DNA of 1,786 bases. Origin: Escherichia phage alpha3. Of this stretch, positions 73 through 1,633 are shown piece after piece (position 1 is the stretch's first letter; each line of letters begins with the position of its first letter). A program made the position numbers and the translations under genes. Location: the sequence record M25640.1; one strand, written 5' to 3'. The notes below the pieces were generated by a model. That model did no database searches. It had not been told where the DNA came from and saw nothing but the letters and a program-made list of their open reading frames with translations.

Positions 73-99
73 AAGGCTGCCGCACTCCCGGTTAGATGC

Positions 100-117
100 C
101 TGCCCAGTGTAGGGCAG
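100..117 (+). repeat. Inverted repeat / stem-loop: 6-bp stem CTGCCC (100-105) with GGGCAG (112-117), 6-nt loop AGTGTA
   Basis: Perfect Watson-Crick complementarity read directly from the sequence; all-GC-rich stem, no following U-tract. Confidence 0.6.
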
Positions 118-155
118 ACCGAGCCGTACGGAGATACCCGATAAACTAGGAACGT

Positions 156-176
156 GGAAGGCGTTAGCCGCCTTCC
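156..176 (+). repeat. Inverted repeat / stem-loop: 8-bp stem GGAAGGCG (156-163) with CGCCTTCC (169-176), 5-nt loop TTAGC
   Basis: Perfect 8-bp complementarity read directly from the sequence; followed by CTCCTG rather than a U-tract, so not a canonical intrinsic terminator. Confidence 0.6.
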
Positions 177-194
177 CTCCTGCTAAGCCCAAAA

Positions 195-199
195 AGGAG
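195..199 (+). promoter_or_regulatory. Shine-Dalgarno sequence (AGGAG) for gene H
   Basis: AGGAG at 195-199, 8 nt upstream of the H ATG at 208. Confidence 0.7.
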
Positions 200-207
200 T
201 TACAGCG

Positions 208-1265: not shown

Positions 1266-1409
1266 ATGAAACCAGCTCATCGCCTCTATCATCCTGTGCT
1301 TGGTTCTTGGTTGTTTAAGTGCCCCGTTTATGTTCGTTATGAGTCCCTTCATCACGGTCGCCTCATTAAGGTTCGTGCTGTTCGTGACCTTTCCCGCGTC
1401 AGCAGTTGA
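1266..1409 (+). CDS. Hypothetical small basic protein (47 aa), candidate leader ORF
   Basis: ATG at 1266 sits 8 nt after AGGAG (1253-1257) and directly after the U-tract, at the position equivalent to the phiX174 gene A start. It reads MKPAHRLYHPVLGSWLFKCPVYVRYESLHHGRLIKVRAVRDLSRVSS, then TGA at 1407-1409 (9 K/R, 4 H, 2 D/E). I recognise no homolog; expression is unproven. Confidence 0.35.
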   Translation: MKPAHRLYHPVLGSWLFKCPVYVRYESLHHGRLIKVRAVRDLSRVSS

Positions 1410-1633
1410 TTGCCAATCCTAAAAATTGCTTTGACGTTGTCATTGCTGAGATTGACGTTACTCACCTTTCTGTCACTTGGTATGATTTTGAAGCTGAAGA
1501 GTATGCTGAGTGTGATTCCGGCACTATGGAGCTTGTTGTTTCTCAGGTAAATTCTGGCGAGGTTATTCGCTCATCTGAAGACCTGTTTGTTGATGTTGAT
1601 GATATGGAATGGCCTTATGAAATTGCGGAGTAA
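1406..1633 (+). CDS. Hypothetical highly acidic protein (75 aa, TTG start)
   Basis: ORF from the six-frame track. The TTG start at 1406 overlaps the TGA stop of the preceding ORF (TTGA); no independent SD. 19 Asp/Glu versus 2 Lys/Arg. TAA at 1631-1633. An alternative internal ATG at 1526 has no SD. Coding status uncertain. Confidence 0.3.
   Translation: MIANPKNCFDVVIAEIDVTHLSVTWYDFEAEEYAECDSGTMELVVSQVNSGEVIRSSEDLFVDVDDMEWPYEIAE

Follow-up and report, generated by a model that had tools for sequence, protein, structure and literature searches.

Comparison across related genomes shows that the strongly acidic 75-codon reading frame found in the window (the whole 1,786-nt stretch of DNA analysed here) constitutes the C-terminal 75 codons of a 122-codon gene, ORF1, that is under purifying selection. 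The explanation that best accounts for the data overall, and to which we assign a probability of about 0.8, is that ORF1 is a single gene that has been split in this record and that encodes an accessory protein specific to its clade. A first-pass annotation of the window had instead read the acidic frame as a small gene in its own right, started at a TTG codon coupled to the stop of a basic reading frame upstream. Our results preserve most of what that annotation described and replace the gene structure that it proposed.

The split frame in the window record

The window is 100% identical to Escherichia phage α3 (X60322/NC_001330). Its positions 1201-1786 correspond to α3 genome 1-586, that is, to the opening 586 nt of the H/A intergenic region, which is 758 nt long and precedes the start of gene A at α3 759. 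The features relevant to the analysis are the following.

1-72: end of gene G
208-1200: gene H
1226-1261, + strand: terminator-like hairpin with a 14-bp stem and an 8-nt loop, followed by a T-run at 1260-1265 (terminator scan and RNA fold)
1253-1257, + strand: Shine-Dalgarno sequence AGGAG, 8 nt 5' of the true ORF1 start (sequence; invariant across relatives)
1266-1633, + strand: ORF1, 122-codon accessory gene, broken here into 1266-1409 and 1406-1633
1393-1395, + strand: frameshift site, CCC in the window record (alignment)
1406-1633, + strand: acidic ORF, codons 48-122 of ORF1, with a divergence hotspot at about 1531-1590 (codons 83-101) inside it
1637-1726, + strand: ORF2, a 29-aa hydrophobic peptide with a single transmembrane-like segment, conserved in all relatives
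1724-1786, + strand: start of ORF3, 58 aa in full (α3 523-699), running off the window, conserved in all relatives

The G/H intergenic region (window 73-207) is GC-rich and contains two strong DNA hairpins, at about 100-121 and 156-176, with a DNA fold of -23 kcal/mol (z -1.9); we take it to be the region in which the primase-dependent minus-strand origin of α3, St-1 and φK was placed (Sims et al. 1979). The H/A stretch carries no annotated feature in the α3 records or in any of the 2006-survey genomes (DQ0798xx / NC_0078xx), and among the records inspected features are annotated there only in Lilleven (MK629527) and in an unverified dog-faeces genome.

In an alignment of 15 records, the window reads GACCTTT-CCCGCG at 1393-1395, whereas resequenced α3 (DQ085810.2) reads GACCTTTCCCCGCG, with CCCC in place of CCC, and one extra base relative to the window is also present in all 13 other relatives. 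Restoring this base joins the basic 47-aa ORF and the acidic 75-aa ORF into one 122-codon gene starting at ATG 1266. The corrected product, MKPAHRLY...SPRQQLIANPK...WPYEIAE, reads …RDLSPRQQLIANPK… across the junction and has a mass of 14.2 kDa, a pI of 4.8 and a net charge of -10. The TTG at 1406 becomes the Leu48 codon of this product, and its apparent overlap with a stop codon arises because the window record, reading CCC, is one base short. In 8 of the 15 related records the Leu48 codon is CTT or CTG, which provides no usable start, and in 13 of the 15 no stop lies 5' of it and the frame is continuous, so that the coupled start proposed in the first-pass annotation is better described as an internal leucine codon.

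The α3 records differ at only two further nearby sites, both of them G/C calls (1535 and 1538), at which relatives mostly side with DQ085810.2. This pattern of discrepancies suggests gel-reading errors in the 1992 sequence, and the missing C is most likely a sequencing error and not a real variant of Kodaira's α3 stock; judged from these alignments, the frame break most likely belongs to the record rather than to the phage. Members of the ORF1 family are defined by an uninterrupted frame of 120-129 (or 154) codons from an ATG with AGGAG, located between genes H and A and followed by the 29-aa and 58-aa ORFs. The window shows this genomic position and the following ORFs; as written, it matches the family in two pieces, with the frame interrupted in this record. 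Programmed frameshifting at the C-run was considered and rejected, given that the run is not a slippery heptamer and that all relatives are unshifted.

A second frameshifted record is that of St-1 (NC_012868/GQ149088), in which a different 1-nt deletion, AATTG-TTTGAC at about position 222, falls within ORF1. Its product keeps 55 native residues, after which it continues out of frame, and the acidic part is lost. St-1 is grown on K-12 (PMC3324380), and the truncation suggests that ORF1 is dispensable in the laboratory; the deletion may be a loss-of-function allele that arose in the laboratory, or else another error in a record. Both frameshifted records could be sequencing errors, in which case they would say nothing on dispensability.

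If the frameshift were genuine in the 1992 α3 stock, the acidic part would either be left over, untranslated, from a gene that had lost its function during laboratory culture, or be made by reinitiation at TTGA in a split gene whose halves re-associate. The window does read CCC, the TTG/TGA overlap has the geometry expected of translational coupling, and the independent frameshift of St-1 in the same gene makes loss in laboratory strains plausible. We nonetheless consider a genuine frameshift distinctly improbable, since the independent resequencing of α3 has the extra C, the two nearby G/C differences are typical of gel-reading errors and, as the first-pass annotation had correctly remarked, no Shine-Dalgarno sequence precedes the TTG. 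Furthermore, exact-sequence look-up in a 15-billion-protein collection finds neither split product (nor the exact fused α3 sequence; 0 of 3 found), and the members of the α3-type cluster, among those listed, are all 122 aa long.

The same evidence bears on the possibility that the acidic ORF encodes a stand-alone, very acidic DNA mimic of the Ocr or anti-CRISPR kind, paired with a separate basic partner. The composition reported by the first-pass annotation is accurate: the quoted 75-aa translation from TTG is recovered exactly at 1406-1633 on the + strand, with 19 Asp and Glu against 2 Lys and Arg residues (pI 4.05, charge about -17), the upstream 47-aa ORF (1266-1409) is basic (net charge about +7, pI 10.6), and negative charge is kept under rapid sequence change. 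We regard this possibility as highly improbable, however, because relatives do not preserve the TTG as a start, 13 of 15 records read straight through from the basic part in one frame, AlphaFold2 (AF2) folds both parts together in one domain, and no similarity to a solved mimic fold was detected. The continuous frame and non-conserved start refute the stand-alone gene structure: the supposed small acidic gene corresponds to the C-terminal 75 residues of a 122-aa protein, and what had been seen as a charge-complementary pair of ORFs is the two halves of a single polypeptide.

Coding constraint and distribution of ORF1

A continuous 122-codon ORF1 frame, its ATG preceded by AGGAG, is present in 13 of the 15 records, namely resequenced α3 (DQ085810.2), Lilleven, NC35, NC3, ID62, WA13, WA45, ID21, NC28, phiK, NC29, ID32 and the dog-faeces genome. 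No indels occur in ORF1 among these 13 intact genomes, its length being exactly 122 codons throughout, and the frame is also found in further metagenomic genomes. The Nei-Gojobori dN/dS ratio of the fused frame, computed over 78 genome pairs, is 0.18; it is lower in codons 1-47 (0.07) than in the acidic codons 48-122 (0.26). Of the five off-frames, four yield ratios of 1.2-2.1, and the antisense frame that shares the third codon positions of ORF1 yields 0.29, as expected. Variable sites are distributed 43/34/96 over the three codon positions. Constraint is uneven along the gene: the N half is the most conserved part (dN/dS 0.03-0.09) and nearly invariant, codons 44-64 have a dN/dS of 0.03, and codons 83-101, which contain a predicted helix (85-97), reach 0.71. 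Many genomes also have open hydrophobic frames that overlap ORF1 and ORF3 in other reading frames; with dN/dS of at least 1, these were rejected as not coding.

The conservation and codon-substitution analysis that the first-pass annotation had suggested thus supports its candidate, with a conserved frame and a dN/dS of 0.18 over the fused frame. Its doubts about coding status are resolved in favour of coding, although the ORF boundaries and the start that it assumed were wrong. Nor does the compositional artefact that it had contemplated fit the data: the acidity is greater than expected by chance (the annotated α3 proteins contain no 75-aa stretch with a net charge more negative than -10), the frame is conserved, and dN/dS is 0.26 over the acidic part. 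We therefore assign next to no probability to a non-coding acidic ORF arising as a chance frame or compositional artefact in a long region with cis-acting signals: α3 and 23 of 26 GenBank records annotate nothing in the H/A region and T-rich microvirus DNA gives many long alternative-frame ORFs, but substitution is codon-position-specific, a dN/dS of 0.18 is seen in the ORF1 frame only (the antisense wobble-sharing frame aside), and exactly 122 codons are kept without indels in 13 genomes, with a confident AF2 fold.

The distribution of the family is narrow. A word-indexed search identified 19 ORF1 homolog clusters, all of them on contigs of at most about 6.3 kb, an exhaustive HMMER profile search of 1.84 billion representatives gave three matches, including a diverged 129-aa form (P0020), and a tblastn search of 50,697 phage records located ORF1 in 26 α3-like GenBank records only, in 23 of which it has been left unannotated. 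On the basis of these searches, the ORF1 family is an orphan restricted to the genus Alphatrevirus and its close kin. The cassette formed by ORF1, ORF2 and ORF3 is absent from φX174 and G4, which makes it accessory. The corrected α3 ORF1 is 72-97% identical to the ORF1 of relatives (96% in the case of Lilleven). The Lilleven protein (QBZ71502.1, 122 aa) is an ortholog in the same H/A position, followed by the same 29-aa and 58-aa coding sequences; it is intact and annotated as one coding sequence, whereas in the α3 record the gene is split and unannotated.

Several variants of the family were observed. Two contigs of 6193-6303 nt (P0017 and P0018) encode 154-aa forms of ORF1 in which an acidic N-terminal extension of 32 residues (MKPLTSSEIAVINSAICDLDDSIEEVESLVAS…) precedes the normal start. 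A diverged 129-aa allele occurs at 820-1209 of a 1962-nt Logan contig (SRR20337160, hereafter L016); in this single contig the flanks are 81-93% identical to α3 and ORF1 shows 56% nucleotide and about 35% amino-acid identity, a profile that may reflect either local replacement or a very fast-evolving segment. The H-ORF1-ORF2-ORF3-A synteny is kept even in diverged L016. For NC35 and NC3, identity to α3 is 93% over the H/A region, against approximately 82-83% over G-H. Together, the identity contrasts of NC35/NC3 and L016 indicate exchange of the cassette between lineages.

Charge, predicted structure and neighbouring elements

The polarity of charge along ORF1 is kept in all homologs, with +5 to +8 in the N part and -12 to -18 in the C part; in the two forms with an N-terminal extension, the N part reaches only about 0 to +2. 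The acidic bias is present in every homolog, including the one that is only about 35% identical. Across codons 65-101 each of 13 genomes has 7-9 acidic residues, and there is one basic residue in total. Nucleotide diversity in the H/A region reaches its maximum, 0.40, within the acidic part (window positions 1531-1590), compared with 0.05-0.2 elsewhere. Judged from these alignments, it appears to be negative charge rather than sequence that is kept in the acidic part.

The AlphaFold2 model of ORF1, built on an 18-sequence alignment, has a pLDDT of 90.5 and a pTM of 0.81. It predicts one compact, mainly β domain that spans the artificial junction, with strands at residues 3-9, 13-17, 21-28, 33-40, 57-64, 69-73, 78-82, 104-110 and 118-121 and helices at 44-49 and 85-97. 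The structural comparison proposed in the first-pass annotation hence bears out an ordered fold, but not a resemblance to known DNA-mimic folds: we detect no similarity of the predicted ORF1 fold to any solved DNA mimic and no OB-fold match. Neither a non-conserved frame nor a disordered structure, two outcomes that the annotation had set against its own reading, was obtained.

Database comparisons of the cassette were largely negative. Family searches in Pfam, PHROGs, PADLOC and NCBIfam return no useful match for ORF1, ORF2 or ORF3, and in the same searches ORF1 matches no defence or anti-defence family. Sequence and profile searches of the PDB give no significant match for ORF1, a Foldseek search of BFVD retrieves only its own Lilleven ortholog (TM 0.97), and Rfam yields sub-threshold noise only over the window. 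The model is predicted to have a new-looking fold, with no recognisable known counterpart.

The hairpin at 1226-1261, which directly follows the gene H stop, has a predicted RNA folding energy of about -20 kcal/mol (z -2.4) and sequesters the ORF1 Shine-Dalgarno sequence within its 3' arm. Its sequence is conserved in 14 genomes, with a T-run that is interrupted in several relatives. No true covariation is seen in the hairpin across these 14 genomes: the outer stem is invariant, and changes in the inner stem mostly break pairs. A TTGACA hexamer at 1204-1209, immediately 3' of the gene H stop, is kept in nearly all relatives. No promoter was found 5' of ORF1, there being no acceptable -10 element after TTGACA and no + strand site in a promoter scan.

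The ATG of ORF2 lies 3 nt after the ORF1 stop. ORF2 has a dN/dS of 0.34, and its dS is only 0.16, compared with 0.72 for ORF1 and 0.41 for ORF3; this low value suggests either an overlapping element or an extra constraint acting at the DNA or RNA level. The nucleotide-diversity minimum of the H/A region (0.05) also falls in ORF2, and a +1 frame within it (…KLLSENLLLWLLLLLCCME…) is conserved as well. The GTG start of ORF3 overlaps the ORF2 stop as GTGA, with GGAGG upstream, and is replaced by ATG in NC29, ID32 and L016. ORF3 has a dN/dS of 0.08 and an AF2 model (pLDDT 76) with four β-strands and a helix; no relationship between ORF1 and ORF3 is detectable. One 761-nt ENA contig (P0023) encodes a 78-aa variant in which the transmembrane segment of ORF2 is fused in frame to ORF3. 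Unless it is an artefact of assembly or of an indel, the fusion is a hint that ORF2 and ORF3 work together at the membrane.

The 3' end of ORF3 falls within the -35 hexamer of a promoter match located 5' of gene A (TTGACA-18-TATATT, 11/12, α3 696-725), which is conserved in the clade. In NC35 a 29-nt deletion at about 700-730 removes the -10 region of this promoter, and gene A of NC35 may depend, to judge from this deletion, on transcripts that pass through the ORF1-3 cassette. A conserved hairpin at α3 727-757, GCCCTC…GAGGGC followed by TTTTT, separates the putative promoter of gene A from its ATG and looks like an attenuator or leader structure.

Proposed role and relation to known systems

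We tentatively propose that ORF1 is a non-structural, host-directed accessory factor that would act in counter-defence or host takeover through protein binding. The conserved basic half and the invariant 44-64 segment would provide a constant core, and the acidic face, in which sequence changes fast and charge is kept, would engage a basic, probably nucleic-acid-binding host partner. Expression would depend on transcription continuing through the hairpin that follows gene H, and translation of ORF1, ORF2 and ORF3 appears to be coupled. This proposal draws on the charge dipole, the uneven constraint, the diversity peak, the exchange of the cassette, its absence from φX174 and G4, and the truncation in St-1. 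We view a host-directed factor with its acidic face as an evolving interaction surface as possible, at rather less than even odds. Conservation is highest in the basic part of the protein, a pattern no less compatible with nucleic-acid binding than with mimicry, and to our knowledge the known DNA mimics are acidic over their whole surface. A more specific claim, that ORF1 is a new-fold counter-defence or host-takeover protein in which the conserved basic core carries a fast-evolving, necessarily acidic face that blocks a DNA- or RNA-binding host factor involved in defence or repair, is quite unlikely. If true, it would make ORF1 the first anti-defence gene described in a φX174-type microvirus, and it would account for the 12% of a size-limited genome that the α3 clade devotes to the cassette.

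The conserved basic half lends itself to another interpretation, in which ORF1 serves replication, packaging or gene expression as an accessory factor that binds nucleic acid. Contact with DNA or RNA would be made by the basic β-sheet half, and control of this contact, or the recruitment of partners, would fall to the acidic half, much as in SSB, T7 gp2.5 or T4 gp32. The N half is indeed both basic (+7, pI 10.6) and the most conserved (dN/dS 0.03-0.09), and the gene lies near the replication gene A and its promoter. Moreover, α3-like phages have a primase-dependent minus origin that works on SSB-coated DNA. Set against the host-directed reading, we hold this role to be unlikely but credible.

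The arrangement of the cassette has also to be weighed, for ORF1 could form a membrane-associated module with the ORF2 peptide and ORF3, involved, for instance, in superinfection exclusion or in modulating lysis or DNA entry. The three ORFs are tightly coupled and always syntenic, ORF2 is transmembrane-like and is fused to ORF3 in one variant, and the cassette lies directly 3' of the DNA-pilot gene H. ORF1 itself, however, has no hydrophobic segment or signal peptide (GRAVY -0.2), and its divergence in L016 is independent of that of ORF2 and ORF3, evidence against tight co-evolution; we judge such a module rather improbable.

Whichever role applies, the analysis modifies the view of a subfamily, the Bullavirinae, that is often treated as having a completely known gene set. 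The α3 clade keeps a 760-nt three-gene cassette, and the reference α3 record (NC_001330) hides the largest gene of this cassette behind a probable one-base error, because of which the region is still treated as intergenic and remains unannotated in most records. With the reference annotation corrected, ORF1 emerges as an orphan whose charge dipole is unusual and conserved and whose acidic face contains a divergence hotspot. Should it be host-directed, the question of counter-defence in the smallest DNA phages would be opened; otherwise, the result is a corrected annotation.

The presence of putative genes in the H/A region is already known, and the acidic ORF is not a new kind of element. Such genes had been noted by Rokyta 2006, according to PMC2935103, and ORF1 is almost certainly one of the five frames proposed there; only three H/A frames, ORF1-3, show coding-type constraint. 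The genomes of Rokyta 2006 are of the same clade, and their H/A region is the only long non-φX174 region that they contain. Recent papers on the α3 group still give only eleven φX174-type genes (PMC13029530).

Among known systems, the DNA mimics (T7 Ocr, ArdA, Ugi and some anti-CRISPRs) resemble ORF1 in being small, phage-encoded and strongly negative. The likeness extends to the pI of 4.05 in the C part and 4.8 in the whole protein, and to a charge that is kept while the sequence drifts. ORF1 differs from the mimics in that it shares no sequence or fold similarity with them and in that only about 60% of it is acidic, the rest being basic (N part +7). Acidic C-termini are also found in E. coli SSB, T7 gp2.5 and T4 gp32. 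Like these proteins, ORF1 combines a basic, conserved N part with an acidic and aromatic C-terminal end (…DDMEWPYEIAE), but it gives no OB-fold match, and its acidic part is predicted to be structured, unlike a disordered tail. Possible precedents within the same subfamily, Bullavirinae, are the φX174 proteins K and A*, which, according to PMC2935103 (table 1), are non-essential, accessory and non-structural and modulate burst size or host shut-off. ORF1 has no homology to either and a different genome position and, whereas K and A* are overprinted on essential genes, it occupies its own non-overlapping space.
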